Assembly: GCA_902802365.1 (NCBI GenBank) | Contig: CADCLZ010000001.1 | Location: 11,393-75,392, forward strand | Length of the DNA: 64,000 nt | Origin: an uncultured Erysipelotrichaceae bacterium | GTDB lineage: Bacteria > Bacillota_I > Bacilli_A > RFN20 > CAG-826 | Direction: 5' to 3' | Shown here: positions 3,893 to 38,893 of the stretch, one piece after another | Layout of the letters: every line of letters begins with the position of its first letter | Numbering within the stretch: position 1 is the first letter of the stretch | Position numbers and translations under genes: made by a program | Notes under the pieces: model-generated | Databases searched by the model: none | Seen by the model: the letters and a program-made list of their open reading frames with translations, nothing else | What the model was told of the DNA's origin: nothing

Positions 3893-4185
3893 AGAAGATC
3901 CTCCGTTTTACGAAGATGGGTTTCCTCCCATCGACAGGACGATAAAAATATACCATAGAAAGAGGTTTCTTTAGAAAAGCAAAAAGGGCTCATGCCTTTT
4001 GTGAAAGCGATTTGAGAGAAAATAAGAACAAGACCATTTTATCAAGAGAGGAACCTTTCACGATGCGCGAAATCTGAAAATCCGGGTAATTTCGGCTTTT
4101 CTAACAAAAGCTAGGCGACCTTTGATTTGAACTTTTCCAACAAAGGTTATTGGCCGCCTAAGAAGGGCCGCGGAATCGCCTTGAT

Positions 4186-4218
4186 AGGGCTTTAAAAGGC
4201 GAAGGAATTAGGTATAAT
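4186..4218 (+). promoter_or_regulatory. Putative sigma-70-type promoter for the rightward polysaccharide operon
   Basis: TTTAAA - 16/17 nt - extended GGTATAATGG about 70 nt upstream of ATG 4288. Divergent from rfbB. Confidence 0.35.
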
Positions 4219-4287
4219 GGCTTTGCCACCCCAGAAAAAGTTGCATCTTTCCTGTTAGGAAACATTAACTTCAGGCATGGCCTAAGC

Positions 4288-7761: not shown

Positions 7762-9050
7762 AGATGGTTACCGTCATTATGGCCGGCGGCAAGGGAACCC
7801 GGCTAGGAGGCATAACTCGGCAAATTCCAAAGCCCTTAGTTCCAATTAATGGCGTTCCAATTTTAGAACGCGAAATCGACTGCTTAAGAGATCAAGGGTT
7901 TACAGATATCATTCTAACCGTTTCTTATAAAGCGGATGCGATCATCGAATATTTTGGGGATGGATCAAAGATATCGCCTGTCAGCAACAAGCCTTTTGGG
8001 GTAAAGATCTCTTATTTCGTTGAAGAAGAGCCGCTCGGTAATGCGGGGGCATTATTTAGGATCAAAGACCAATTATCGGATGATTTCTTACTGCTCAACG
8101 CTGATTCGCTTTTTGATATCGACTTCAACCGCTTTGTTGGCTATCACAAAGAAAAAGGAGGATTGGCGACTTTATTCACGCACCCAAACTCCCATCCCTA
8201 TGATTCCGGATTGATCGTTGCCGACAAAGAACATAGGCTCATTCGCTGGCTTTCTAAAGAAGACGAAAGGCCGGCTTGGTATAAAAACAGAGTCAACGCT
8301 GGACTCCACATACTAAATAAAAAAATTCTGGATGTCCAAATTGACACTCCAAAAATCGATTTGGACCGTCAACTCCTTAAACCTTTACAAGGAAGTGGGC
8401 TCATTTATTGTTATGATTCTCCAGAATATGTTAAAGACATGGGCACGCCGGAACGCTTCCATCAAGTAGAAGAGGACCTTAAAAAGGGCATACCTTCTGC
8501 GAAAAACCTGAAGCACAAACAGAAGGCCGTTTTTCTTGACCGGGATGGCACGATTAATAAATTTGTTGGCTTTTTAAGAGATGTCGATCAATTTGAACTG
8601 CTCCCCGGAGTGGCAGATGCGGTCAAACTAATTAACCACTCCGGCTATTTAGTAATTGTAGTCACCAATCAGCCCGTCATCGCTAGGGGCGAGGTGACTT
8701 TCGAAGGATTAGATGATATTCATAACAAAATGGAAACCTTGCTTGGAGAAGAAGGGGCATATCTTGATGCAATTTATTTCTGCCCCCACCATCCGGATAG
8801 CGGGTTTGCTGGAGAGGTCGAAAACCTAAAGATCGATTGCAGTTGCAGGAAGCCAAAGCCAGGCATGTTTCTTCAAGCGGCGAAGGATTTTAATATAGAC
8901 TTATCAGAGTCTTATATGATTGGAGACAGCGAAAACGATGTTAAGGCAGGTCAAAACGCCGGTTGCAAATTGTCGCTCTTAGTTAAAGACAATTTGGCAA
9001 AAACAGTAACTGCTGTTTGGAGCAAAGCTACGGCTCATCTTAACCAGTAA
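7758..9050 (+). CDS. Bifunctional D-glycero-D-manno-heptose 1-phosphate nucleotidyltransferase (HddC-like) / D,D-heptose 1,7-bisphosphate phosphatase (GmhB, HAD)
   Basis: N-terminus: VIMAGGKGTRLGGITRQIPKPLVPING (NTP-transferase). C-terminus: KAVFLDRDGTIN...VVTNQP...CSCRKPKPGM...GDSENDV (GmhB HAD motifs I-IV, Cys-rich loop). Confidence 0.8.
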   Translation: MKMVTVIMAGGKGTRLGGITRQIPKPLVPINGVPILEREIDCLRDQGFTDIILTVSYKADAIIEYFGDGSKISPVSNKPFGVKISYFVEEEPLGNAGALFRIKDQLSDDFLLLNADSLFDIDFNRFVGYHKEKGGLATLFTHPNSHPYDSGLIVADKEHRLIRWLSKEDERPAWYKNRVNAGLHILNKKILDVQIDTPKIDLDRQLLKPLQGSGLIYCYDSPEYVKDMGTPERFHQVEEDLKKGIPSAKNLKHKQKAVFLDRDGTINKFVGFLRDVDQFELLPGVADAVKLINHSGYLVIVVTNQPVIARGEVTFEGLDDIHNKMETLLGEEGAYLDAIYFCPHHPDSGFAGEVENLKIDCSCRKPKPGMFLQAAKDFNIDLSESYMIGDSENDVKAGQNAGCKLSLLVKDNLAKTVTAVWSKATAHLNQ

Positions 9051-9134
9051 TGGTTTTCTTTTTAATTTATTTATAAAAAACACCGCCGGTCTAATGTGGA
9101 CCCCGTGTCAAGGACGCTTTAAAAACTGAGTAGT

Positions 9135-9535
9135 TACTGAGAAATGGCAAGGACAGTACTGCCCTTGCCATTTTCTCTCGCCGAGGCGGCCGGCACCGGG
9201 AGCCTTACCGGCGCGGCGAGGAGATAGTCGCGAACTCGGCTGACGTCATCTTGCCAAGGCCCGTCTGCGGCCTCCAGTTGTTGCAGTAGTCTATGTAGTC
9301 GGAGGCCTCGACCACCACATCGTCGAAGGTGCGGCACCTTCTAAGGTGCATCTCGTCCTTGGTGTGCCCGAAGAAGGACTCCATAGGAGCGTTGTCCCAG
9401 CAGTTGCCCCTTCTTGACATTCGGGTTTGTCATCAGGGCGGCGACCTGCTCGTCGGTCAGCAATTTGCTGGACATAAGAAAACCCCGATCAAAGTGTAAT
9501 CGGAGGCAATCTTGATGTCAGGCGTTTTTCCAAGA
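9135..9535 (-). mobile_element. Internally deleted IS3-family element: orfA start fused to orfB tail
   Basis: Minus strand reads MSSKLLTDEQVAALM... then shifts to ...RRGNCWDNAPMESFFGHTKDE...DYIDYCNNWRPQTGLG (IS3 OrfB C-terminus). Terminal sequence TGGAAAAACGCCTGACATCAAG at 9534 (reverse complement). About 60% GC. Low-coordinate boundary uncertain. Confidence 0.55.
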
Positions 9536-10630
9536 CTATTCCAGCCCTTCGTTAAACCGAGACAATTTTCGTTTTAGCCTTTTTTGAACCAGTCCAAGGA
9601 AGTGGCCCCTAAACAAATGAACATACTTTGCGATTTTATAAGCATTGGTTTCAGCAAGCAACAAGGGGCTTCGAGAGATTTTAAGGCGCAGATCATCAAC
9701 AAGCTTTTTTCTTTCTGCGCCTTCTTTAGCTAGAATGATATGTCTATATCTTGCCGCACATGCAAATGCAACCCATTTCGTTAAAAGCTTAAAATTTTGG
9801 GAATTAGAATTCTCGAGTTCTTCGAAGAACAGAGAGAGCATATCTTCAAGACATAGTTTGCTGTCCTCTTCGTGCTTTGCATAACCGCTAAACGAGACGC
9901 TTTGCCCCGGAACGCCTATGCTATAGATGTAAGTTGGATGCTCAAAATAAGAGAAAGTTTTAATAAAAGGAATCGGAAAAACGCAATATTCTTGATCTTC
10001 ATAAAATACCTGCTCTCTAACTTTGATATTGTTGTTTTTCCAAAAAGTTGTTTTATATGTCAAGGAGTGGAGTTGGAATAAGAAGTCGTTTAAGTTTGGC
10101 TCCTTTACGGCCCCACCGGCTGTCTTGCGTACCGCCGAAACTCTGCTTGTTTTACCTGTGTTAACAAAAAAATGTTCGAAATCTGAAAAAACAACGTCTG
10201 CATCACAATCTTTAAGGAAAAGCAAGAAATCCGAAAGGGAGTCCATAGGAATGGCATCGTCTCCGTCAATAACTTTGAAATACCTCCCTTTCGCTGCGGC
10301 AACACCAACATTAATGGCCGAGCCGTGGCCTCCGTTTTTTTTATGAATGACTTTGCAAAAAGAAGAAAAGCGGAAACACAGTTCATCTAGCAATTGGCCT
10401 GTCTTCCCATCGGTAGAGCCGTCGTCTATAAAAATGAGTTCGTATTCATTAGAACAGCGGAGATTTAAAAATTTTTCAGTATAAGAGGGTATAAATTTTG
10501 CCGTGTTAAAAGAAGGCACTATGAGACTTAGCTGAATTTCGTCTTCATGGGGTAACATTTCTTCCATATAAGGAATTATACCAGCGGCGAACGGAAAAGA
10601 ACTTGCCAATTGACCTAGATTGATGCTCAA
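9536..10630 (-). CDS. Family 2 glycosyltransferase
   Basis: LSLIVPSFN...IFIDDGSTDGK...VIDGDD GT-A motifs. True start probably M22 (MEEMLPHE, 10567). Stop abuts the IS3 remnant end. Confidence 0.8.
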   Translation of the reverse strand: MSINLGQLASSFPFAAGIIPYMEEMLPHEDEIQLSLIVPSFNTAKFIPSYTEKFLNLRCSNEYELIFIDDGSTDGKTGQLLDELCFRFSSFCKVIHKKNGGHGSAINVGVAAAKGRYFKVIDGDDAIPMDSLSDFLLFLKDCDADVVFSDFEHFFVNTGKTSRVSAVRKTAGGAVKEPNLNDFLFQLHSLTYKTTFWKNNNIKVREQVFYEDQEYCVFPIPFIKTFSYFEHPTYIYSIGVPGQSVSFSGYAKHEEDSKLCLEDMLSLFFEELENSNSQNFKLLTKWVAFACAARYRHIILAKEGAERKKLVDDLRLKISRSPLLLAETNAYKIAKYVHLFRGHFLGLVQKRLKRKLSRFNEGLE

Positions 10631-26299: not shown

Positions 26300-27062
26300 T
26301 CCCCCTCAAAATAGCGTCCGGTGGTTCTGCTTTTTCGGGCAGCATAGCCCTCTGCCGCGGGACGGACCAACGCCTGCATCTGTCGTCGGCTATCCGTTGA
26401 ACGGATCTCCGTCAAAGTCGGTCGACAACTGCGCGGCGGCCTGATCTTCTTTGAGCCGATTTCGGATGTGCTTCGCAATCTTCTTCATGTTCCTCCCGAC
26501 CGTTTCCACGTAGTGCCCTCTGCGCCGGAATTCTCGGTTCCGGCGCTTGAGCTTCGCGTTTCCCCGCTTCCGGCAGATCATCAGCGACGACTTTCCCTTC
26601 AGGCATCCCATTATCCCGGAAACCGGGAGTTTGGGCGGGGCCGAAATCAGCGTGTGCCCGTGGTCGGGGCGGACCTCCGCCTCGTGGATGGGATCCCCTT
26701 CCATTCGCAGAGCTTCCTGAGGATCGGGCCGATCTCCAGCCTCTTCAAACCCCTTCCTCCGGCATTTCGGGGTGGAGACGACGTGGCACTTACAGTTCCA
26801 GCACGCATGCGCTGAACTTAGGCTGTCGGATGAATTCGGCATGCGGCTCCTTTCAGATGGCGCGTTGGTCCGCCCCATCGTGATAGGAGCCTTTTTGCGG
26901 ATCAGGCAAAGCTGAAAGCTCAACCGAACTTCCAGACTATTGGGGAGTTTTCGCTTGCTGGATGCTCTGCATCGGCTCAGACAACAAAATCGCCGTCATG
27001 CAAAGACTGGACGCTCTTCTCCCTTTTATACACCTTAGCCGGCGGAAAATATCTTTTTGCTT
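26300..27062 (-). mobile_element. IS200/IS605-family insertion sequence (tnpA only), copy 1
   Basis: GC-rich (about 57%) block beginning right after the cupin stop. Contains tnpA. The left-end 210 bp recur at 30085-30293. Confidence 0.7.
26390..26842 (-). CDS. tnpA: IS200-type HUH (Y1) transposase TnpA
   Basis: From M28: MPNSSDSLSSAHACWNCKCHVVSTPKCRRKGF...DHGHTLIS (HuH)...GKSSLMI...RRGHYVETVGRN (catalytic Tyr). Collinear with IS608 TnpA, about 150 aa. Confidence 0.7.
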   Translation of the reverse strand: MPNSSDSLSSAHACWNCKCHVVSTPKCRRKGFEEAGDRPDPQEALRMEGDPIHEAEVRPDHGHTLISAPPKLPVSGIMGCLKGKSSLMICRKRGNAKLKRRNREFRRRGHYVETVGRNMKKIAKHIRNRLKEDQAAAQLSTDFDGDPFNG

Positions 27063-27160
27063 AACCTCTCACATCGTTGGTATGGGGTAAAATCTGTTTT
27101 ACGCTTCCCAAAACGCGATGAATCAAAGCAAACTTATTCCCTTTCCGCTACAATAAAATC

Positions 27161-28048
27161 ATGCAAGATAAGCCGAAAAACGTGCGTTGCCCAATCTGCC
27201 GAAAATACAAGTATCCGACCGAAGACCATATTCCTCCTCGTTCATGCGGAAACAGTCAAAACACCAAATATCATTTCTTCTTAACCGATTACATCGGAAG
27301 CCAAAACCGTACTGAGTTTATTTCGCAAGGTGGATTAAAAAGACGCTTTCTTTGCTCGGATTGCAACAACAGGCTTTTGGGCGCAGGACCGGACAAAGAA
27401 TTGGGGAGCCTTTGCCAAACGGCCGCGAAAGCGATCAGCGAAAAAGAATCATCTTTAACATGGGAAGGCGATATAAAACAAATCATTGTTGCCGCCTTAG
27501 GGCATATTTTGGGAGCCATGCATTATGACAAGTCGCTTCCCGCCAAAGAAATGAGAGCGTTCATTCATAAAGGCATCGTTCCCGAACAATCAAAGTTATT
27601 TCTATTCCTTTATCCTTTTCACGAAATATTTGTTGTCCGAGATTGCGTTGCCGCTCCATTAAAGCCCAATAAGCAATCGATTTTAACGGAACCAATAGGG
27701 CTATCGGGAATGTATTTTTATCCTCTGGCTTTTATATACACCGAAAAAGAAAACTTAGGGAACGGTTTGGATCTCTTTGAAATTTATCAAGAGGGCGAAA
27801 CCAAGATTACATTAAATATCGATTCTTGGTCCAATCCTATAACAAAAACCGTTCTTCCAGCGGATTGGCCGTTTCATCTTGACAATATCAATGACAACCT
27901 CGATTCGGGGTGCATGACGATGGCGGGCGCAGCTGGAGGCGAAAGCATCTCAACAATTCCTCAATCAAAAGGAGTTCTTATAAAAATACATCATAAGAAC
28001 GGAACGCTGACAAACCCCGCCACAAACGAATTGCTTCGATTCAAATAA
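27161..28048 (+). CDS. HNH-motif nuclease-like N-terminus fused to about 200 aa uncharacterised domain
   Basis: CPICRKYKYPTEDHIPPRSCGN...N...FLCSDCNNRL: CxxC...DH...N...CxxCN beta-beta-alpha-Me pattern. Rest unrecognised. Cargo between the two IS200 copies. Confidence 0.55.
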   Translation: MQDKPKNVRCPICRKYKYPTEDHIPPRSCGNSQNTKYHFFLTDYIGSQNRTEFISQGGLKRRFLCSDCNNRLLGAGPDKELGSLCQTAAKAISEKESSLTWEGDIKQIIVAALGHILGAMHYDKSLPAKEMRAFIHKGIVPEQSKLFLFLYPFHEIFVVRDCVAAPLKPNKQSILTEPIGLSGMYFYPLAFIYTEKENLGNGLDLFEIYQEGETKITLNIDSWSNPITKTVLPADWPFHLDNINDNLDSGCMTMAGAAGGESISTIPQSKGVLIKIHHKNGTLTNPATNELLRFK

Positions 28049-28448
28049 ACATTAAAAAAGGTTTCATATAAGGCGAAAATGTGCCGCAACATCGAAACCG
28101 AGCGCTGCCACCCTCTTGACACCATTTCGTTCAAGAGACAACAATTCTAGCGTGCAAGCGTCTTTTATTACTACGATCGTTCTATTCGAGGCCGCTTCCG
28201 TCATGGAAAAAGCTATAAAGGGCTTTAATGATAGAAACCTTTCTTTGGCGCAGTCACTTCCCTTTTTTCAAATGGGTATTCTATCGTTTTCTCGATTTTA
28301 CCTCCTCGTGAAGCGAATCAGCATGTGGAAGAGCTCTTTCAAAGATGGTGATGAAGAGCCGCTTGGGGTGAGCCATATGATTGTCTGAAAGCCCATTCCG
28401 CTTAAATATTTATGGAATCATCCCTACTCTTTCGTTAGAATGGGGGTC

Positions 28449-29192
28449 ATGAAAAAAGAAGGCCAAACAACAATCGATATTTTATCCGCAAACAAAACAA
28501 CCCTTGAGCTTTTGCACAAGGACCCCAACAACCGCGACCGGAGCTATGAGCACTTCCACCGCGCCTTCATCGAGCAGCTAAATAAGGCGGAGGCCGAAAG
28601 GGATCTCGATTACCTGACCCTCCACCTATTCGCCTATCTGGCCTCCTGGGGGATGCTCAGGGGTTCGACCTTCTCCCTCCAGAAAGACTATCTGTTCCAT
28701 AAACCGATCATTGAGATCCTCCTGGACGAAAAATACAAAAGGCTATTGGACATTTCATGGGAGGATCTCGACGAAGATGCGATTCGTGACATCCTCGACC
28801 TCAAGGCGAGGATCACGGCTTATTATAAGGGAGAGTCCTACATCTCTTCCGTTTACGCCTCCGCCCCGGAGATAAAAAGGATCGCCTGCGTCCATGACGT
28901 CCTCGTCTCCAAAATCCTTTTAGGCTCCTATTCCTGCGTCCTGGCCTACGACACCAATGTGAGGGGAGGGCTAAAAAGCAAAGGCCTTTGCCAAAGCTTC
29001 GGGAAAAGGAGCCTATCTCAGCTAAAGGAATTCGCGGGGGAACACGCCGAAGAGTTGGCGGAAGCGTCAAGACTCATGGAAGCCGAACGGGGCATGAAAT
29101 ATTCGGATATGAAGCTATTGGATTCCTATTTCTTTGCCTTGGGGGCCGCGGAGTATGAGAAAAAGAGGGCCCTTGAATCGCAGTTGGGGTAG
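28449..29192 (+). CDS. Hypothetical protein (GC-rich, no recognisable motifs)
   Basis: 248 aa. TGGGGGTC 2 nt upstream of ATG 28449 (the ORF track starts at 28440). About 54% GC, acidic helical composition. Confidence 0.45.
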   Translation: MKKEGQTTIDILSANKTTLELLHKDPNNRDRSYEHFHRAFIEQLNKAEAERDLDYLTLHLFAYLASWGMLRGSTFSLQKDYLFHKPIIEILLDEKYKRLLDISWEDLDEDAIRDILDLKARITAYYKGESYISSVYASAPEIKRIACVHDVLVSKILLGSYSCVLAYDTNVRGGLKSKGLCQSFGKRSLSQLKEFAGEHAEELAEASRLMEAERGMKYSDMKLLDSYFFALGAAEYEKKRALESQLG

Positions 29193-29221: not shown

Positions 29222-29518
29222 CTAAACCCTCTTGAACAGGTCCCTCGTATAGACTTTATCCTTCACGTCGTCCAGACAGGGATCGTACCGATTCGCGATG
29301 ATCGCGTGGCTGGCTTTCTTGAACTCGGCCAGATCCTTGATGACCTCGCTCCCGAAGAACTCATCTTCCTTCAGGGTCGGCTCATAGACCACCACTTTGG
29401 CCCCTTTGGCTTTTGTTCTCTTCATGACGCCTTGGATCGCGGACGCCCGGAAATTGTCGGAGTTGCTCTTCATGATGAGGCGGTAGATGCCGGCGCCGGC
29501 GATCTTCACATTCTTCAT
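29222..29518 (-). pseudogene. C-terminal fragment of UDP-glucose/GDP-mannose 6-dehydrogenase
   Basis: 98 aa matching the UDPG_MGDP_dh_C end ([10 protein letters not shown]...[24 protein letters not shown]...). N-terminal about 300 aa missing. Confidence 0.6.
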
Positions 29519-29884
29519 ACCAGACCTCGTTATCTATGATAGGGTTCCGTTTTGCAACGAAAGCATTATAACAACATCTTTATTAAATGTTTGCTGCTTT
29601 AGCCGCCTTAACATTTTTTCGCGCTCGATAACGGGAAGATAAAACTTTTTCTAACCCCGATAACAAATAGGTCTGCCATTTTGGTCTAGTGGCATCAAAA
29701 CTGTACTAATTCACATGATGTGGCACCTTCCGGGAGAGAGACCATTGGGCGCCTAATCGCCCTGATCTCCTCCAAGAGCCTGATAGCCCCTTCAGCCTTG
29801 CTTCCATCGCGGCCGATTACGACCCATTACCTAAACTGGCGCATCTTTTACTGCCCGGATTGGTTATTTGCATGTTACCCTTAT

Positions 29885-30293
29885 CATTGGAGCACACCTG
29901 CGCCTCGTGGATGGGATCCCCTTCCACTCGCAGAGCTTACGGGGGTGACCCCTATCCCCGGCCTCTTCAGGCCGTTGAACCACTTCCTCCGGTGCTTCGG
30001 GGCGAAAACGACGTGGTGCTTACAGTCCCACCGGGTTTGGGCTAGACTTAGGTTGTCAGTCTTATCTGGCGTTTGGCTCCTTTCAGATGGCGCGTTGGTC
30101 CGCCCCATCGTGATAGGAGGCTTTTTGCGGAAGCTAAAAGCTCAATCGAGCTCCCAGACGATCGGGGAGTTTTCACTCGCTGGATGCTTTGCGTCGGCTC
30201 AGACAACAAAATCGCCGTCATGCAAAGACCGGACGCTCTTCTCCCTTTATACACCTTAGCCGAAGGAAAATATCTTTTTGCTTAGCCTCTTTG
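29885..30293 (-). mobile_element. Truncated IS200-family remnant, copy 2 (left end plus first about 60 tnpA codons)
   Basis: 30085-30293 matches 26856-27062 closely. 29893-30084 matches the tnpA 5' region of copy 1, with frameshifts (MGRTNAPSERS...WDCKHHVVFAPKHRRK). Same orientation as copy 1. Confidence 0.65.
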
Positions 30294-30387
30294 TTGGCGA
30301 TTTGAGGATTTACGTCGTCCATGCCGGAAAGGGCAAGCAAAATGTTAGTATCGATCAAAATCATCTTTGAAACTTAATCAGGGTTAT

Positions 30388-31482
30388 TTATAGCCGCTTC
30401 TTCCTCCAAAAGGGGGCAAATAAAGAAATCGCTTCTTCAATGCTCATTGATGGATTAATTCCATGCGATTCATCAAGAAAAACGCAGTTTATGAATTGGT
30501 CCATATAGAAATTGTGAACTCTCCGCGGGAAATGAGCGATAGGGGTTTCATAGAAGCTCTTAAATGTTTCAAAATGATCTAAAGACCCGAACCGTGACCA
30601 CGCTCGATATAATTCTTCTTCAGGTTTGATATCCACCACATATATTTGCTTCATGTGAGGTTCCCTTCGCTCCCAGGCCTTTTTAATTAGTTCGATTGCC
30701 AAGGCGTCGCTTTCAGGAGCGCTATAACCAATGAAAGTCAGCACCGAGGCGCTGTTTAAAAACGAATCAAGCGACTCCCACGACTTTTTTATGGCCGGGT
30801 CTTGATCATATCTTTTGTTTTTAACAGGGAAGAGAAGCTTTGATTTCCTGTAAGTTTCGCGCAAATCCGACCGGCAATCGGGATTTAAGCCAATCTTGGT
30901 TCCTTCCAATTTAACAATTTCCGCGACGTTCCCATGGAGAAAAAGCAGCATAGGAAGGCGTTCCCAACCAATCAGCTTTTCAATTCTACAATAAGCTTGA
31001 ACAATTAAAGGATCCCAGTTGAAGGTCGCAATTGCGTCGTTGTGATTCAACGACAAAATCAAATGATCGTACATCGTCGCGTGGTCGGGGATTCTGAATT
31101 GGGAATAAAAGTTATAAATTGCGTTATTCACCTCATCAAGAGCCTCTGAAAACTTGGTGTTTTCCTTTTGCCTGTCATATAACTCTGAGTAGATGGTTTC
31201 TAGATTGTCAGAATCGACTCTCAAACCCAATGAACGAATGTAGTCAGTTAGCCCCAATACATCCAAGAATCCAGCCATGCAGGATGATTTGTGACCAGTT
31301 TTGTCTCCATTCGGAATTGCTGCCATCGTGGCTCCTGCGCCTAAGACAACAATATTGGGACGAATGCGCCGGTTAAAAGGAACGGTCATGTTCCAAGAAT
31401 TATAAATGGAATAACCCGGGTTCTTGGGATCCATCATCTCCTTCAACCCTTTGATATATTGCAGGTACTCTTTTCCGTCCAT
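30388..31482 (-). CDS. SIR2-like (SIR2_2 / DUF4917-type) protein; putative NAD+-consuming effector
   Basis: IVVLGAGATMAAIPNG (GAG Rossmann-like NAD motif). LFLHGN (HG motif). TFIGYSAPESDALAI (hGYS..D motif of SIR2_2). GAGGAG RBS 6 nt upstream. Last gene of the four-gene operon. Confidence 0.5.
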   Translation of the reverse strand: MDGKEYLQYIKGLKEMMDPKNPGYSIYNSWNMTVPFNRRIRPNIVVLGAGATMAAIPNGDKTGHKSSCMAGFLDVLGLTDYIRSLGLRVDSDNLETIYSELYDRQKENTKFSEALDEVNNAIYNFYSQFRIPDHATMYDHLILSLNHNDAIATFNWDPLIVQAYCRIEKLIGWERLPMLLFLHGNVAEIVKLEGTKIGLNPDCRSDLRETYRKSKLLFPVKNKRYDQDPAIKKSWESLDSFLNSASVLTFIGYSAPESDALAIELIKKAWERREPHMKQIYVVDIKPEEELYRAWSRFGSLDHFETFKSFYETPIAHFPRRVHNFYMDQFINCVFLDESHGINPSMSIEEAISLFAPFWRKKRL

Positions 31483-31554
31483 AACTGCTCCTCTCTATAT
31501 TGATCAGTTTCCGAATAGACCGCTATGAAATGCAAAGGAACGGAAACCAGACCA

Positions 31555-33069
31555 TCACGAATGATCGTTTCTGCCTTTAAGGTGATTGACTAGCGACAAA
31601 ACGTCACGAAGCAAACGTTCGTCCGTGATGAAAAGCATAATCTTTGTACGCGCTCGGGTGAGACCTTGATACAAAAGCTTGTCAAAGATGTAATCATGGC
31701 TTGGGTGTTCAACCGATCTTAAAACCCCATTCTCATAGCAAAAATGGTTGTCCATTATCATGCACACGCCATCAAATTCTTGTCCTATAACCGAATGGGT
31801 ATTCAATCTCCCTTTTTGATAATCTAGCGAAGAATCATAGAAAGATGCTGTATAGGAGATGTAGGTAAAGCCAAGAGGCTCAGCTGCTTTTGCCCTCTTA
31901 ACCGCTTCTTGGGCGTCTGGTTCGAAATAAATCTGAACATTTGGGAATGAAAACGAAGGCTTGAAATGGTGTTTATTCCGCAAACACGAAATAAACAAAT
32001 CAATCTCTTCGTTTGTACGGATGCATTTTCTCAAGTTCGCGTGGTATTGACCACACAAATCTTCAATCCGATCAACGGTGTTTCTTTTCTCTTCCGAATG
32101 AGACAACTTCTGCCCCGAATCGTAAGAAAAGACGCAAATGGCTTTGGTTTTCTTAACCCATCGCTCGATTTTATCAAGGTGGGATTCGTAGAGGCGATGA
32201 GATTCATCAACCATGATGACTTCCGCTGACCTAATTTCTCGGTATCCCAATGCCTTTGCGGGAACAACAAGAAGGTTTTCGGACATTGTATTTAAGCTGT
32301 TGTGTCCTTCGCAAAGGAGCCCGGAGTGAACGATCATCACTTTTATCCCTTGATTCGCTAGATCTTTGGCAATGTCGTAGAGCAACAGCGTCTTTCCAGT
32401 GCCAGGGCCGCCCGTGAGACGAAAAAACTTATCCGCTGGACCAGAAAGTGCGTAAGAAAGAATTTCGCTTTTGATGTTTTCTTGGTGTTCGGTCAAGAAA
32501 TATTTTCCTTCCCAAAAGTCTTTGGGCGCATTCAAAGGCGAAATCAAAACGTTGAATGGTGAAAGAACGGCATCCGAGTCGGTGGCGCAGGGAACAAAGT
32601 CGGCAAGTTTAATGATTTCGGTGCCGAAAGCCCCTTCCTCCAAGTTGTCACCAACCAACTTAAAAAACCGACGATTTGACGAAACGAAACAATACGAGCA
32701 AACGTTCTTCCCCAAAATCTTTAAGTAATGCCGATTTTCAGTCAATTGCTTTTTTATCTGTTGATCCGGAACCATCATGCTTTTTAACTCAATATTTAAA
32801 ATCGTTTCATCGGTGATTTTCAGCAGATCAAATTCTTTGCCTAAATTGGGGATGACGTATCCCATGATAAAGCCGGACGCGGAACGTTCGGACCAACCCC
32901 CTTCTTTCAAAAGGGCTTTGACATCGAGGATTTCATTATGCCGATAACTTCCTTTTCCACCCGTTAGATAAGGAATGTACTCTTCGCTTAGTTCCTTGTT
33001 ATCGGCAAGTTTTATGAGATCGAATAATGAAACCAATTTATTGTTCATCTGCTCGTCTCGCTTTCTCAT
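31555..33069 (-). CDS. DUF2075-type SF1-helicase-like P-loop NTPase with N-terminal PD-(D/E)xK (NERD-like) nuclease motif
   Basis: N-terminus: EFDLLKITDETILNIELK (D...ExK). Walker [14 protein letters not shown]. Walker B VIMVDESHRL. Motif VI-like YQGLTRARTKIMLF. Start 33069 or 33048. Either one overlaps the upstream RloB-like stop (33038). Confidence 0.6.
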   Translation of the reverse strand: MRKRDEQMNNKLVSLFDLIKLADNKELSEEYIPYLTGGKGSYRHNEILDVKALLKEGGWSERSASGFIMGYVIPNLGKEFDLLKITDETILNIELKSMMVPDQQIKKQLTENRHYLKILGKNVCSYCFVSSNRRFFKLVGDNLEEGAFGTEIIKLADFVPCATDSDAVLSPFNVLISPLNAPKDFWEGKYFLTEHQENIKSEILSYALSGPADKFFRLTGGPGTGKTLLLYDIAKDLANQGIKVMIVHSGLLCEGHNSLNTMSENLLVVPAKALGYREIRSAEVIMVDESHRLYESHLDKIERWVKKTKAICVFSYDSGQKLSHSEEKRNTVDRIEDLCGQYHANLRKCIRTNEEIDLFISCLRNKHHFKPSFSFPNVQIYFEPDAQEAVKRAKAAEPLGFTYISYTASFYDSSLDYQKGRLNTHSVIGQEFDGVCMIMDNHFCYENGVLRSVEHPSHDYIFDKLLYQGLTRARTKIMLFITDERLLRDVLSLVNHLKGRNDHS

Positions 33070-33634
33070 TTTTCATCGACGCGACCGCTTTATCCATCGT
33101 CAAAGCAAAATTCGCACGATTATATCCTTCTAGACACGCTTCAGTGGAATAACTCAATTTGCCCTTAATCCGTTCATTCTTCAGATAGGCTTTCTTCGTG
33201 TTTTTAAAGTACATCGCGCGGTCAACTTTGTTTGCTTCTGGGTGTGAAACCTCTAACACCTGCTCAATGTTTTTGGAGAAGGCCATCGGCAAAAAGCCAT
33301 TCTTTTTGCACCACCGAATGAGCGCCTCGTTCTTTGCCTTCTCCGCTTTGCCTTTTGAATCGACGTCAAAGCAAATGATCGGAACGATCTCAAATAACTC
33401 CTTGGGATAGAACTGCCTCTTGGCCCGTTCGATTGCTTTGGTGGTGCTGGAAGAGATAATGTTCCCTTTGCCTGCGACATGAAGGAAGACGCGCTTTGCC
33501 GGATAACCAGATGCTCCGCCATATTGGAAATAAAGCCCATAATATGCATCGATCAGCGCGCTTAAATAAACGTTGTCGGTTTTAGCAAGCGAGGTCGTCT
33601 CGCACACGATGATCAAAGCGAGGGCTTTATTCAT
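33038..33634 (-). CDS. RloB/AbiLii-like protein (TOPRIM-like)
   Basis: Start set at M52 of the track ORF (ATG 33634), which overlaps the ATPase stop as GATGAATAA. ALIIVCETTS...NVYL (IVCEGxxTE-like). PIICFDVD (VFDRD-like). MAFSKNIEQVLEVSHPE (SNpcFElWllLH-like). Confidence 0.55.
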   Translation of the reverse strand: MNKALALIIVCETTSLAKTDNVYLSALIDAYYGLYFQYGGASGYPAKRVFLHVAGKGNIISSSTTKAIERAKRQFYPKELFEIVPIICFDVDSKGKAEKAKNEALIRWCKKNGFLPMAFSKNIEQVLEVSHPEANKVDRAMYFKNTKKAYLKNERIKGKLSYSTEACLEGYNRANFALTMDKAVASMKNEKARRADEQ

Positions 33635-34982
33635 CCTTTTGCTCGTCTCCAAAGATCTCCGCGAATTGATATTCGCTGATATTAAATGGAATTCCCAAAA
33701 TGAATCCACCCAAATAAGGCCCTTTGGGATTCTTTCTGGCGCCCCTGCTCCAGGGCACAATGCCGTTTCCTTCCGTAAGGAAATCAATAGAGTTTCCGGT
33801 TTTATTCAGTGGATCCATGATTTCGACGTTATGGGTGGTCATGACAATTTGGGCATCGCTTGAGAAGAGGAAATACTCAATCAGGACCGTGATATAAACA
33901 TCGTGGATATCGGAATCGATTTCATCAATGAAGACGATAGATCCCCGCGCGGCGGCCAAAAAGGCGTAGAAAAGCCTGGTGAGCTTTTTAATGCCTGTCG
34001 ACTCGAATTCATAATCCACTCTGAAGCCGCTTTGATAGCCATAAGTTAAATTGACGACAAGCGTGTCAACATCTTCTTTATAAGAGGGCTCAACCCGGAT
34101 GAGGCCCGGCTTCATAATTTTCAAAAAAGCAGCCAATTTTCCCAAAGAAGATTCAAAGGTCTTCTTTTCGGTTTTTTCGATAATGTCGAAGCAATCCCTA
34201 TGAAAGCTCTTTGTCATACCCTTTCTTTGCCGGTTGGTCATCCATCTTTGCAAGATTCCCAATCGTTGCTGCTCGTTTTTCTTATTTCGATCCATGAGCA
34301 GCTCCATCATTTTCTGAACGGCGAAGGATTCGTGGCTATCAGAGGTTTCACCGAAGAAGACAGAGATATTGGACGCACACAAAAATGCCTGAGCCAAAGT
34401 CATCAAGGAAGGAACGGGATCCTTCTCAATCGCCTTTTTGGCAAAAAGGTCCATCAGTAAAGAACCAGACAAAGTGTGTTTTGTAAAATCAACTTTGCTT
34501 TGATTCGCAAAGGATACAAAATCCGGCTTCCCGATGAATTCACCATTCCTCTGCCCGGCCAAGATATCGGACTCTTCCTTTTTGCTCAAACCGAAAATTT
34601 CCTCTTCGAAAATCCTTAAAGACCCGAATTCGTCGTACCCGATTTTCAGGGAATGGCTGAGGAATTTGTCTGGTTCGTCAGATTTACGACGAATCCGATA
34701 GGTCATCTGAATCGAGAGGCTCTTTCGGTTTTTGTTGATGAGCCTCGTTAAAATCGAGACGGTGGGCGAATCGTCCAAACTCGTTTCGTTTTTGGCGAGG
34801 CGGGCGTAGAAATCCGCTGCCAAAACAATTCCCGTTTTACCCACGCCATTGGCGCCATAAATCGCTTTGATCAATCCTTTGGTTTCTTTTTTCGTTGATC
34901 TGGGGTTGTCAAACTTAAGAGTGATATCCTCTTTGATGCTTTTGATTCCGCCGACGGACATGGACAATAATGTGATTCTCAT
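33627..34982 (-). CDS. ABC/OLD-family (AAA_15/AAA_21-type) ATPase lacking a TOPRIM domain; AbiLi/RloA-like
   Basis: N-terminus: MRITLLSMSVGGIKSIKE...AIYGANGVGKTGIV (Walker A). C-terminus: SIVFIDEIDSDIHD (Walker B/D-loop) and VMTTHN (H-loop). First gene of the operon. Confidence 0.7.
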   Translation of the reverse strand: MRITLLSMSVGGIKSIKEDITLKFDNPRSTKKETKGLIKAIYGANGVGKTGIVLAADFYARLAKNETSLDDSPTVSILTRLINKNRKSLSIQMTYRIRRKSDEPDKFLSHSLKIGYDEFGSLRIFEEEIFGLSKKEESDILAGQRNGEFIGKPDFVSFANQSKVDFTKHTLSGSLLMDLFAKKAIEKDPVPSLMTLAQAFLCASNISVFFGETSDSHESFAVQKMMELLMDRNKKNEQQRLGILQRWMTNRQRKGMTKSFHRDCFDIIEKTEKKTFESSLGKLAAFLKIMKPGLIRVEPSYKEDVDTLVVNLTYGYQSGFRVDYEFESTGIKKLTRLFYAFLAAARGSIVFIDEIDSDIHDVYITVLIEYFLFSSDAQIVMTTHNVEIMDPLNKTGNSIDFLTEGNGIVPWSRGARKNPKGPYLGGFILGIPFNISEYQFAEIFGDEQKDE

Positions 34983-34996
34983 AAATTTACATAAAA

Positions 34997-35051
34997 GTGA
35001 AATTTTTCACTTATTTGTTTATACTATATCACCATTCTATTTGTCTTTAAA
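34997..35051 (-). promoter_or_regulatory. Putative promoter (-35 TTTAAA, 17 nt, TGa-TATAGT) with perfect palindrome GTGAAATTTTTCAC in the leader
   Basis: Minus-strand reading: TTTAAA (35051-35046), extended -10 TGATATAGT (35031-35023). Palindrome at 34997-35010 lies between the -10 and ATG 34982. No obvious Shine-Dalgarno. Confidence 0.3.
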
Positions 35052-35578: not shown

Positions 35579-36301
35579 TTATTTGCAAAGGCTATGGGCG
35601 GCTTCGTCGACGTAGACAGTGACGTCGGGGTGCCTCTGGAGGATGCTGCAGGGCATTTCCTCGGTGATCGGCCCTTTGATGAGGCCATAGACCGCTTTCG
35701 CTTTGTTCGCCCCGGTGGCGATCAGGACGATCTTCCTCGCATTCATGATGGACTGAAGGCCCATCGTGACCGCCCTAACAGGAACTTCGGAAATGTCGTT
35801 GAACAACCTGGAATTGTCTTTGATGGTCTGCTCCGTCAACGCGGTTTCGTGGGTCAAAGAATCAAAAGGCGTCCCAGGCTCATTGAAGGCGATGTGGCCG
35901 TCGCTCCCGATGCCGAGGATCTGGATGTCGATGCCGCCGGCTTCTTCGATCTTTTGATCGTATCCCTCCATGAAGGAAACATAATCGCCAACCCCAAGTA
36001 GGACATTGGTTTTGCTTTTATCGATATCGACGTGGTTGAAGAGGTTCTCGTTCATGAAATAACGATAGGATTGGTTATGGGTTCCTTCCAAACCAACATA
36101 TTCATCGAGGTTGAAGGTCGTGACTCCCAAAAACGATACACGCCCCTCGTGGTTTGCCTTAATAAGATTGGCATAGACCTTCAATGGGGAGGTCCCTGTC
36201 GCCAATCCAAGAACGGGATGGCTTTTGCCATTTATCGTTTTGATGAATTCCTCCGCGATTTTCGCGGAGATCTCTTCTTCGCTTCCGATAACAACTTTCA
36301 T
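35579..36301 (-). CDS. nagB: Glucosamine-6-phosphate deaminase
   Basis: LGLATGTSP...DEY...GIGSDGHIAFNEPG. Collinear with NagB. Confidence 0.9.
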   Translation of the reverse strand: MKVVIGSEEEISAKIAEEFIKTINGKSHPVLGLATGTSPLKVYANLIKANHEGRVSFLGVTTFNLDEYVGLEGTHNQSYRYFMNENLFNHVDIDKSKTNVLLGVGDYVSFMEGYDQKIEEAGGIDIQILGIGSDGHIAFNEPGTPFDSLTHETALTEQTIKDNSRLFNDISEVPVRAVTMGLQSIMNARKIVLIATGANKAKAVYGLIKGPITEEMPCSILQRHPDVTVYVDEAAHSLCK

Positions 36302-36966
36302 TGTTTCTTCTCCACCACCACATTGGTCGATTTGACGATGCTGTTATTGGGATAGACGCCTCTAGTCATCGTCAAGGGATAGACTTGGGTGTTTTGGCCA
36401 ATGATGGTCCCTGGATTCAAAACGGAGTTGCAGCCGATATCAGCATGATCGCCCAAAAAAGAGCCGACCTTGCGGATTCCCGTATTAATGTCTTCCTCGC
36501 CGTGGATGACGACGGGTTTGCCGTCGCTTCTAAGGTTGGAGCAGATGCTTCCTGCGCCCATATGGGCGTAATTCCCAAGGATCGAATCGCCAACATAGTT
36601 ATAATGCGGGGCTTGGCAGTGACTTAGCAAAACCGCATTCTTGAATTCTGATGAATTGCCCAGCACGCATTGATCCCCGATCAAAACCAAACCGCGGATG
36701 AAACATCCGGGTCGGATTTCAACGTTGTTGCCGATGATGGCCGGCCCGATGATCGTCGCCGTGTCGGCGATCATCACGGTTTGACCAATAAGCGCATCAT
36801 CCTTAAGTTTCGTATAACCGGGGAGGCCTTTTTCAATCAAAGATTGAATATAAGGCTTAATAAGGGGTAGCAACTCCCAAGGATATTCTTTGGAGAAGAT
36901 GAAAGAGTCGATGTGCTCGATTCCGGAAGGGTGGAAAAGGCTCTTATTGGTGATCTTCATAGGCAT
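36298..36966 (-). CDS. Left-handed beta-helix (hexapeptide repeat) protein, GlmU C-terminal/acyltransferase-like
   Basis: Repeats IGPAIIGNNVEIRPGCFIRGLVLIGDQCVLG...IGCNSVLNPGTIIG. Translationally coupled between glmM-like and nagB. Confidence 0.5.
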   Translation of the reverse strand: MPMKITNKSLFHPSGIEHIDSFIFSKEYPWELLPLIKPYIQSLIEKGLPGYTKLKDDALIGQTVMIADTATIIGPAIIGNNVEIRPGCFIRGLVLIGDQCVLGNSSEFKNAVLLSHCQAPHYNYVGDSILGNYAHMGAGSICSNLRSDGKPVVIHGEEDINTGIRKVGSFLGDHADIGCNSVLNPGTIIGQNTQVYPLTMTRGVYPNNSIVKSTNVVVEKKQ

Positions 36967-38590
36967 AACCTTTTCTCTGGATCAGGCGATATATAGTTTC
37001 GATGTGGCGGTCGCATTCTTCCAAATCATCGCTTTCCGCCATGATGCGGACGACGGGTTCGGTCCCGGATTCCCTTAGAAGGATCCTGCCGCTTCCATTC
37101 ATTTGCTTATTGATCTTCTCCGCCAAAGAAAGCACGGCTTCATCTTCCATCACCGCTTTTTTGTCCACGACGGGGACGTTCTTCAAAACCTGCGGATATA
37201 AGTGGACCGGCGCGCCAAGCTTGGCCAAGGAAGATTTTTGGTCAATCATCTCTTCCAAAAGCTTGATCGCGGTCAAAACGCCATCGCCCGTCGTCGCGTA
37301 TTTGCGGATGATGATGTGCCCCGATTGCTCGCCGCCGAGCCAAAAATCGTTCTTCATCATTTCCTCGTAAACGAAACGGTCGCCGACTTTGGTTTGCTTG
37401 TTTTGGATGCCCTCTTCTTGGAAGGCTTTTGCCAAACCGGAGTTCGACATAACCGTGGACACCACCATATCGTGCTTCAATTCGCCGTGCCGTCTCAGCC
37501 TCTTCGCGAGGATATAAAGGATCTTGTCGCCGTCCACCACTTCGCCGTTCTCATCGACGGCTAAGCAACGATCGGCGTCGCCATCAAAGGCAAAACCAAC
37601 ATCAAGATGCTGTTCTTTCACCAACCTTTGAAGATTTCCGATATGGGTGGAACCGCAGTCTTTGTTGGTGTTGAGCCCATCCGGATGATCGCCGATCACA
37701 TGGAGCTCCGCCCCCAAAGCGGAGAAGACGGAGCGGGCGATGTACCAGGATGCCCCATTGGCGCAATCAAGGCCGATCCTTAAGCCGCGGAAAGAGGTGA
37801 TGGAGCAAGAGATGAGATAGCCGATATAACGGTTCCTTCCGGCAACGTGGTCCACCACCTTGCCGATTTTTGCTCTTTTCGCATAAGGGAGGTCGTTTTC
37901 TTTTTCCAAACCCAAAGCGGGAAGGTCGCCATCCAAATAGCATTCGATCAAATGGGTGATGCGCTCTTCCATTTTCTCACCGCAGGCATTCAAGACCTTG
38001 ATGCCGTTATCATAGAAGATGTTATGGGAAGCGGTGATCATAACCCCACAGTCAAAGTTCTCGGTCCTGGTGACATAAGAAACCGACGGGGTGGTTGTGA
38101 CGTGAAGGATATAGGCATCCGCCCCTGATGCCGCAATGCCGGCGCAAAGCGCGTATTCCAACATATAAGAGCTTCTTCTGGTGTCTTTGCCGATGCAGAT
38201 CTTCGCCCGCGCTTCGTTCGGCCTTTTGGAGGCGAATTGGGGGCTGGAGAAATACCAGCCCAGGAACCGGCCTATTTTAAACGCATGCTCAGCGGTGAGG
38301 ACTTGGTTGGACTCCCCGCGGAAGCCGTCGGTTCCAAAATAATGGTTTTCCGCGTTTTGCGGTTCGGCTTTGTTTTGGTAGGTATTCAAAACAACGGATT
38401 CATCAATCAGTTCATTCGCGTTGATGCGAAACAAATCGCAGATCGCGGCGATCTTGTCTAACTGCGGATAGCTTTCGCCTTTTTCCCACTTGGAGACCGA
38501 TTGGCGGGAAACGCGGAGACGCACCGCCAATTGGGTTTGGGATAAGCCGGCGCTTTTCCTTAGGTGAATGATTTTCTCGGAAATGGTCAT
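36944..38590 (-). CDS. glmM: XRE-family HTH domain fused to phosphoglucosamine mutase
   Basis: N-terminus: IIHLRKSAGLSQTQLAVRLRVSRQSVSKWEKGESYP (Cro/C1 HTH). Then GTDGFRGESN, ITASHNIFYDNGIKV (active-site Ser loop). C-terminal PGM/PMM domains. Start taken at MTISEK (38590). Confidence 0.8.
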   Translation of the reverse strand: MTISEKIIHLRKSAGLSQTQLAVRLRVSRQSVSKWEKGESYPQLDKIAAICDLFRINANELIDESVVLNTYQNKAEPQNAENHYFGTDGFRGESNQVLTAEHAFKIGRFLGWYFSSPQFASKRPNEARAKICIGKDTRRSSYMLEYALCAGIAASGADAYILHVTTTPSVSYVTRTENFDCGVMITASHNIFYDNGIKVLNACGEKMEERITHLIECYLDGDLPALGLEKENDLPYAKRAKIGKVVDHVAGRNRYIGYLISCSITSFRGLRIGLDCANGASWYIARSVFSALGAELHVIGDHPDGLNTNKDCGSTHIGNLQRLVKEQHLDVGFAFDGDADRCLAVDENGEVVDGDKILYILAKRLRRHGELKHDMVVSTVMSNSGLAKAFQEEGIQNKQTKVGDRFVYEEMMKNDFWLGGEQSGHIIIRKYATTGDGVLTAIKLLEEMIDQKSSLAKLGAPVHLYPQVLKNVPVVDKKAVMEDEAVLSLAEKINKQMNGSGRILLRESGTEPVVRIMAESDDLEECDRHIETIYRLIQRKGYAYEDHQ

Positions 38591-38893
38591 TGATATTGCA
38601 ACTAACGGTTGCTTTTTTAGAAAGAAGGCCACTATTTGCCTTTTTCGCGCTTATTGTACCCGCCTATTATGGTTGCGAAAACAAAAAACAAATTCTTTTT
38701 TCCTTCCATTATGCCGCCGAAAATCTCTCTCGAGGCCAAATCAAGCTCCGAGGCTTTCTTTTTTTGGTCTTCGTCTGCAGCGCGAACTGACGAAAATTCA
38801 TCGTATCTCGAAGGCCAAAAAGCGACAAAGAAGGTTTACAATGTAATACTGTATTGATGGGGTTGCCCATCATATGTTCATAAGGAGAAAATC

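Follow-up and report, generated by a model that had tools for sequence, protein, structure and literature searches.

AbiO is a classical single-gene abortive-infection determinant of lactococci with a predicted architecture of PD-(D/E)xK nuclease plus superfamily 1 (SF1) helicase (PMC13064643). Nhi is a nuclease-helicase immunity of Staphylococcus which, in the account given in PMC10732053 (citing Bari et al., 2022), is activated via phage single-stranded DNA-binding protein (SSB)/replication complexes, leading to degradation of phage DNA. In the two-gene systems AbiL and RloA/RloB, the proteins AbiLii and RloB are held to be the TOPRIM-type partner; the mechanism of AbiL itself is not established, and PARIS is the characterized analogue (PMC13064643). 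Among SIR2 proteins, a small stand-alone “sole-Sir2” found within type I-C cas operons is reported in a preprint to have nicotinamide adenine dinucleotide hydrolase (NADase) activity, and a close homologue of it, acting alone, to protect Escherichia coli against T2 and T4 (10.1101/2024.12.27.630466). The subject of this study is a block of four adjacent genes, here termed A to D, in a stretch of 64,000 nucleotides (nt) from an uncultured Erysipelotrichaceae bacterium (assembly GCA_902802365.1, contig CADCLZ010000001.1, positions 11,393 to 75,392; hereafter the window). These are almost certainly anti-phage genes, and the block is likely a compact defence island in which three self-sufficient, independently mobile modules (A+B, C and D) are juxtaposed and probably co-transcribed.

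Gene families in the block

The block consists of four intact open reading frames (ORFs) on the minus strand, packed within 30388-34982. Its features are as follows.

33627-34982, minus strand: gene A, 451 amino acids (aa), AbiLi-like AAA_21 ABC/SMC-type ATPase, the proposed sensor/scaffold of module 1
33038-33634, minus strand: gene B, 198 aa from the ATG (MNKALA), small TOPRIM/OLD-fold protein, the proposed nuclease effector of module 1
31555-33048, minus strand: gene C, 497 aa from M8, AbiO/Nhi-family nuclease-helicase, module 2
31483-31554, minus strand: gap of 72 nt between C and D, with a GAGGAG ribosome-binding site 6 nt before the ATG of D
30388-31482, minus strand: gene D, 364 aa, stand-alone SIR2-fold protein, module 3, a presumed NADase effector
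35023-35051, minus strand: promoter-like site TTTAAA-17-TATAGT with an extended -10 TG, a candidate promoter for the whole block by consensus match only

Gene C places the block most firmly among known defences. Its product matches the PADLOC profile of AbiO with an E-value of 1.6e-127 (residues 13-494 on profile positions 4-467 of 468) and that of Nhi with 1.2e-121 (residues 12-494 on positions 3-469 of 470). An original prediction, made from the sequence of the window alone, had described C as a nuclease joined to a DUF2075 helicase-like NTPase. This description is upheld by the Pfam match to SLFN-g3_helicase/DUF2075 (PF09848; E 2.7e-8) and by an alignment with three homologues, in which the N-terminal PD-(D/E)xK nuclease signature D74...E87-x-K89 is invariant, as are G213/G216-T220 of the SF1 helicase (GTGKT of the Walker A motif GGPGTGKT) and D281-E282 of Walker B. 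The homologues recovered are 32-48% identical to C. Judged by sequence, C is a member of the already described single-gene defence family AbiO/Nhi. It would, by virtue of this membership, unwind and degrade phage replication intermediates in the manner reported for Nhi.

Genes A and B resemble an AbiL-type pair. The best defence match of A in PADLOC is AbiLi (E 3e-30), ahead of AriA (2.6e-14) and then several candidate ATPase-plus-partner systems, and its Pfam match is to AAA_21 (E 6.4e-13), in keeping with the OLD/AbiL-type ATPase originally predicted. It carries a Walker A motif (GANGVGKT) and a Walker B/D-loop (IVFIDEIDSDIH); alignment with five homologues supports the M1 start and shows G43/N45/G46/G48/K49 and D353/E354/D356/H360 to be invariant. 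A search with the family alignment of A recovered no relative in viral contigs, and neither A nor C had a phmmer match in the PDB.

Gene B has no match in Pfam (E <= 10), PADLOC or NCBIfam, and a word-indexed homologue search returned only B itself. An exhaustive HMMER search of 1.84 billion representative proteins (E <= 0.001) recovered 37 remote relatives, each roughly 180 aa long, in whose alignment E12, D20, N58, D90-x-D92 and E124 are conserved. The AlphaFold model built on this alignment (predicted local distance difference test, pLDDT, 93) has a TOPRIM/OLD-nuclease fold with acidic catalytic-type residues, E...DxD...E. The family profile found nothing meaningful among PDB sequences, and neither B nor 35 of its relatives matched RloB (PF13707) or AbiLii at E <= 0.01. 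The original description of B as RloB-like therefore holds for its TOPRIM/OLD-like fold but not for membership of PF13707: B is a small TOPRIM/OLD-type protein and a predicted functional counterpart of RloB/AbiLii, not a sequence member of that family.

A transitive link between the B family and RloB/AbiLii is provided, at the level of sequence, by a pair in Fusobacterium vincentii (locus L092). Here the ATPase shares 31% identity with A, its partner is 168 aa long, and both lie between hsdS fragments and hsdR. The partner aligns with the B-family profile (hhalign probability 99.1%, E 9e-19) and has sub-threshold matches to RloB (E 2.5e-3; 18.5 bits, the cut-off being 31.5) and AbiLii (1.2e-5), and also to OLD-like_TOPRIM. 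In the same locus (3896-5260), a long (SKQA)n tandem repeat closes the hsdS-like gene that precedes the pair, and a second, partial hsdS comes next. Such an arrangement points to specificity subunits around the pair that undergo phase variation or shuffling.

By analogy with PARIS and OLD nucleases, the ABC/SMC-type ATPase A may sense a phage cue and hold, then release or license, the TOPRIM nuclease B, which would cut nucleic acid once triggered.

Gene D has a SIR2 fold outside the reach of current sequence models. It has no match in Pfam (E <= 10), PADLOC (E <= 0.1) or NCBIfam, SIR2, SIR2_2 and AbiH included, and none in the phage collection. Its homologues number 1,706 (as database clusters) and are about 345 aa long; a few of them are annotated at source as “SIR2 family” or “SIR2-like domain-containing”. 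The copy in the window is a divergent member, its nearest homologue being 45% identical. The AlphaFold2 model has a pLDDT of 81 overall, falling to 56-58 at residues 190-210 and to 49-50 at residues 21-40. Foldseek against the PDB gave 28 matches at E <= 1e-3, the best being SIR2/HerA (8wld; E 8.5e-9), with ThsA, DSR2, the SIR2 of SPARSA and classical sirtuins among the others (entries 8btp and 8ygc included). The SIR2-like assignment of the original prediction is thus borne out by fold, though no SIR2 model of Pfam recognizes the protein.

The D family conserves VILGAGAS, TFNWDP, FLHGN and FGYSAP, which in D itself read GAGAT, TFNWDP (N155, D157), FLHGN (H183) and GYSAP. N155, D157 and H183 are invariant in 45 family members, and their correspondence to the catalytic residues of solved SIR2 structures is suggested by motif position. 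D consists of the SIR2 domain only and has neither a fused sensor nor the C-terminal domain of DSR proteins. On activation D would deplete NAD+, to judge from its fold, its conserved N/H motifs and the occurrence of homologues in defence islands. The cas-operon contexts of some homologues (see below) make it plausible that the D family is the “sole-Sir2” family, beside which it is set by description only. Two other placements were rejected. A relationship to AbiH, itself a SIR2-like defence encoded by one gene, has an hhalign probability of 1.5% against an AbiH protein, and membership of the SIR2/HerA systems, although these give the top structural match, finds neither a HerA-like neighbour nor a PADLOC match.

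The divergence of D raises the question of whether some of the genes, and D in particular, are decaying passengers rather than working defences. The window copy has about 25 extra N-terminal residues relative to the family, where pLDDT is low, and it lacks both the family Cys cluster (C191/C204/C207, family numbering), likely a Zn-binding module, and the HTHHY motif, which are kept in more than 90% of relatives; the divergent regions cover residues about 186-212 and 299-303, the H302/H303 region being replaced. Pseudogene fragments also lie nearby, namely a C-terminal fragment of Ugd and an IS200 remnant. Decay is nevertheless unlikely: all four ORFs are intact and identical or nearly so on four contigs from different samples, and D retains every invariant residue of catalytic type (G48/A49/G50, N155, D157, H183, G252/Y253 and P319/R320/R321).

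The genes are joined as tightly as originally described, the claim of four closely packed minus-strand genes being borne out by the ORF list. As read from the sequence, the TAA stop of A and the ATG start of B share an 8-nt overlap (AAGGATGAATAAAGCC), the common sequence being ATGAATAA on the reverse strand. The TAA of B (33038-33040) falls inside the start region of C (ATGAACAATAA), also as predicted, and the overlap is 11 nt if C starts at M8 or 32 nt if it starts at M1, an alternative ATG at 33069 that yields 504 aa. M8 is preferred because three of four gene calls on identical contigs, and the homologue alignment, begin there. The predicted 72-nt gap with GAGGAG before D is present as well, and the placement by an IS200 remnant, between polysaccharide genes and nagB, is seen in the annotation and repeats. 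The claimed difference in base composition (about 40% GC against 55%) was overstated. The block measures 43.2% GC and the whole window 47.4%, and since windows of the same size have a median of 46.8% and a minimum of 38.9%, the block is no compositional outlier.

The site at 35023-35051 is the only promoter-like site upstream of A, and the scan found no consensus promoter or terminator at any gene junction of the block, the C/D gap included. The four genes are probably transcribed together from one upstream promoter; the sites found are no more numerous than in shuffled sequence, so this operon structure stays an inference. Co-transcription alone is in any case no argument for a shared mechanism. 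By tblastn the same block occurs on four metagenome contigs from different samples, with proteins 99.8-100% identical, and because these contigs are independent the block is not an assembly artefact. The other carriers of the arrangement are apparently the same organism.

Distribution of the modules in other genomes

The D family was surveyed by pattern match in a species-representative genome collection (185,579 species), where its members are encoded in at least 575 stretches (575 of the 600 pattern-matched stretches listed). The best 80 D loci, each taken with up to 8 kb of flank per side, contain no A, B or C by tblastn. When the 100 immediate flanking genes from 63 non-redundant loci were clustered and scanned with Pfam, no recurrent partner of D emerged and no Pfam family occurred in more than six. 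The commonest neighbour is a RumA-type methyltransferase (6/100), a housekeeping boundary gene; AAA_21, RloB and SLFN-g3_helicase each occur at most once, and the remaining neighbours are scattered over recombinases, GNATs, Cas1, HEPN and AbiJ-type domains and a type ISP enzyme.

Several D homologues do lie among defence genes. In Neisseria and Eikenella they stand directly upstream of cas1 inside type I-C cas operons, and on the Legionella pneumophila plasmid pLPL one lies just upstream of a type I-F cas1 with a small helix-turn-helix (HTH) gene between (cas contexts were seen in L065, about 7956-9005; L071; and L113, 3450-4427). On a Vibrio plasmid, a further homologue lies in an island together with SLATT, McrBC and a second SIR2 gene. 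In oral streptococci (L067-L086, about 9007-10494) every D homologue overlaps by 20 nt with the gene after it, which encodes a conserved protein of about 495 aa lacking any identified domain, and the two may form a lineage-specific two-gene SIR2 system.

The A+B pair travels on its own. Seven further contexts have a B-family gene (hmmsearch E 1e-22 to 1e-56) immediately after an A-type ATPase, and none of them holds a C or D homologue by tblastn. They are as follows.

L087: pair in a defence island with PycTM, AbiH and a reverse transcriptase
L089: pair between ldh and a flavoprotein gene, the closest relative of A+B (48% and 49% identity)
L092: pair inside a type I restriction-modification (R-M) locus, the classic rlo context
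L098 and L107: further contexts of the pair
L103-L110: widespread insertion of the pair between purE and a MatE gene, the protein being indexed in 132 blocks of the collection
L102, 1174-9531 (a metagenome-assembled genome): 1,046-aa DSR-like SIR2_2 protein, A+B pair, HTH gene and 709-aa NERD-like/SLFN-g3/DUF2075 helicase in a row

Gene C is similarly scattered. Its closest relative recovered (L096; 48% identity) stands by itself next to sugar-transport genes and a transposase fragment, and homologues on Bacillus cereus and Providencia plasmids are solitary among unrelated neighbours. The neighbours in L093, L094 and L096 are likewise unrelated, as for a single-gene system, this being context evidence only. 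None of the four C loci has an A, B or D homologue. The order A-B-C-D was recovered only on contigs whose A to D proteins are 99.8-100% identical to those of the window.

One locus brings similar genes together. In L102 the row continues with an AAA ATPase and then an S8 peptidase. Its helicase matches C by BLASTP at E 2e-4 over about 200 residues and its SIR2_2 protein has no significant match to D; gaps of 327 and 556 nt separate the A+B pair from the SIR2 and helicase genes. L102 was rejected as an orthologous SIR2 + A+B + DUF2075 composite on account of the different families, the 327-556-nt gaps and the intervening HTH gene. We read it as the usual clustering of common defence superfamilies, although no other locus speaks as strongly for a recurring association.

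The original prediction had seen in A to D a single undescribed composite, an integrated system with an ATPase/TOPRIM sensor, a helicase-nuclease and an NAD+-depleting SIR2 effector. The overlapping or near-overlapping junctions, with one plausible promoter upstream and none between the genes, would suit such a system, and L102 holds SIR2_2, an A+B pair and a DUF2075-type helicase in one neighbourhood. The co-conservation in other genomes to which the prediction itself looked was, however, absent in every direction: from 80 D loci, from seven A+B contexts and from four C loci. The L102 genes are of other families and lie far apart, D has a strong ribosome-binding site of its own after the 72-nt gap, and C is a full-length member of families described as single-gene (PMC13064643; PMC10732053). 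Because C is a known single-gene AbiO/Nhi and the four genes are not co-conserved, a four-gene system is not supported and is very improbable.

A second proposal leaves D as a separate neighbour and takes A, B and C as a split version of Gabija, in which the ATPase and TOPRIM nuclease would cooperate with an SF1 helicase in the manner of GajA and GajB. Class 2 OLD/Gabija systems do pair an ATPase-TOPRIM protein with a UvrD-type helicase. Overlaps of 8 nt (A/B) and 11 nt (B/C) suggest translational coupling, C has weak GajB matches in PADLOC (best E 4e-4), and a helicase-type gene follows the A+B pair in both L092 (HsdR) and L102 (the DUF2075 helicase). The match of C to AbiO/Nhi is, though, more than 120 orders of magnitude better than that to GajB, and no GajA match of A appears among the PADLOC matches listed. 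Neither the closest A+B relative (L089) nor the purE/MatE insertion has an adjoining helicase, and the closest relative of C has no ATPase or TOPRIM gene nearby. Such a three-gene unit is accordingly most unlikely.

A pairing of C with D would be modelled on SIR2 effectors that commonly need a partner such as HerA, pAgo or TIR (PMC11514479; PMC13064643): on sensing phage DNA or SSB, the Nhi-like helicase would switch on the SIR2 NADase, in the role that HerA or pAgo has as partner of SIR2 in other systems. D does follow C on the same strand with no promoter- or terminator-like site between them. No C-like gene, however, lies within 8 kb of D in 80 homologue genomes, SLFN-g3_helicase makes up at most one of the 100 immediate neighbours, and the relatives of C have no adjacent SIR2 gene. 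Both the NADase activity of sole-Sir2 and the phage protection by its homologue are, moreover, reported for proteins standing alone (10.1101/2024.12.27.630466). We regard a sensor-effector pair of this kind as highly improbable.

The reading preferred here, an island of three independent modules, has points against it as well. The packing is unusually tight for unrelated modules, with a B/C overlap of 11-32 nt and junctions devoid of promoter- or terminator-like sites, and for this reason the genes are probably co-expressed and possibly functionally coupled in this lineage. L102 brings the same three superfamilies together (SIR2_2, an A+B pair and a DUF2075/SLFN-g3 helicase), and the sample of A+B contexts, at seven distinct contexts, is small. 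The modules might in this lineage be co-regulated and coupled, for example into a Gabija-like A+B+C machine with the SIR2 protein, encoded on the same transcript, as back-up NAD+-depleting effector. Such coupling is quite unlikely, but it keeps a small probability in view of the tight overlaps, the one candidate promoter and the recurrence of the superfamilies in L102.

As a target for cloning, the four-gene system is therefore the wrong unit. The locus is a clean example of three defence modules in what looks like one operon, and a warning for system discovery by guilt of adjacency. What is new is mild: the B and D families, both missed by current models and of modest interest for annotation, in an island whose parts are otherwise of known kinds. 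B represents a small TOPRIM family that escapes the present Pfam and PADLOC models, so AbiL-like pairs of the A+B type are probably under-counted. The D family, made up of stand-alone SIR2-fold proteins, is very large and is not covered by any model in Pfam or PADLOC; a profile for it would improve defence annotation.

Surroundings of the block

The block is flanked by polysaccharide genes further to its left and by nagB (PF01182) at 35579-36301, and on the side of D its edge is marked by an IS200 remnant. The insertion-sequence features are as follows.

29889-30290: degenerate copy of an IS200 end, some 100 nt beyond gene D on its downstream side; 81-92% identity to 26666-27069 (direct repeats D1-D4)
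29884-30108: ORF at the IS200 remnant with a weak Y1_Tnp match
About 26390-27069: intact IS200, with the Y1_Tnp ORF (mapped from L001) at about 26390-26878, minus strand

The degenerate end lies 3.2 kb to the right of the intact element, and the two bracket a segment of three genes that encode a 295-aa protein whose N-terminus is weakly HNH_5-like (27161-28048), an uncharacterized 250-aa protein (28440-29192) and a 98-aa C-terminal fragment of UDP-glucose dehydrogenase (Ugd; 29222-29518). This segment looks like a composite-transposon-like or rearranged insertion beside the defence block. Just after D, a 48-aa ORF (30218-30364, minus strand) extends into the repeat of the IS200 end. Its N-terminus (MILIDTNILLAL) resembles the beginning of a PIN-domain toxin, and the insertion sequence may have cut the gene short. 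The ORF has no Pfam or PADLOC match.

On the other side of the block, 36944-38632 (minus strand) encodes a 562-aa phosphoglucosamine-mutase-type protein (PGM_PMM I-IV) with an N-terminal HTH_3/HTH_31 domain; it is unusual for an enzyme of cell-wall precursor synthesis to be fused to a DNA-binding domain. The gene appears to form an operon with nagB and a hexapeptide transferase gene. Scanned with Rfam, the window as a whole showed no RNA family.

Comparison with known systems

In gene content, A to C recall Gabija (GajA plus GajB), as ATPase, TOPRIM and SF1 helicase are encoded consecutively on one strand. They differ from it in that the ATPase and TOPRIM parts are in separate genes rather than fused as in GajA, and in that the helicase is of the AbiO/Nhi family, not UvrD, and brings its own nuclease; nor is the association conserved elsewhere.

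Gene D shares the SIR2 Rossmann fold with the defence sirtuins of SIR2/HerA (Nezha), ThsA and DSR2, which are its best structural matches. Like the defence SIR2 NADases it keeps GAG, N-x-D and HG-type motifs and has homologues in cas operons and defence islands, whereas it has no HerA, pAgo, TIR or SLOG partner and the window copy lacks the Cys cluster of its own family. As a single small protein with no fixed partner it resembles AbiH and sole-Sir2, the latter (about 440 aa, against 364 aa for D) being compared by description only.

With AbiL (AbiLi/AbiLii), RloA/RloB and PARIS (AriA/AriB), the A+B module shares an ATPase that matches AbiLi best and AriA more weakly, and a partner with the OLD-nuclease TOPRIM fold; the two genes form an overlapping bicistron whose pairing is kept in the seven further contexts. 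The homologous pair within the Fusobacterium type I R-M locus stands in the very “restriction-linked ORF” context of RloA/RloB. The difference lies in B, which matches no RloB (PF13707), AbiLii or AriB model and whose family has no counterpart in Pfam; PADLOC-type rules that need both components would probably not call A+B.

Gene C is set apart from lactococcal AbiO and staphylococcal Nhi by an identity of only 32-48% to its homologues and by the TOPRIM gene that precedes and overlaps it, and its defence role is predicted. In all else it follows them closely: it matches both profiles from end to end, has the same nuclease plus SF1 helicase architecture, and belongs with relatives that are solitary genes on plasmids and chromosomes.

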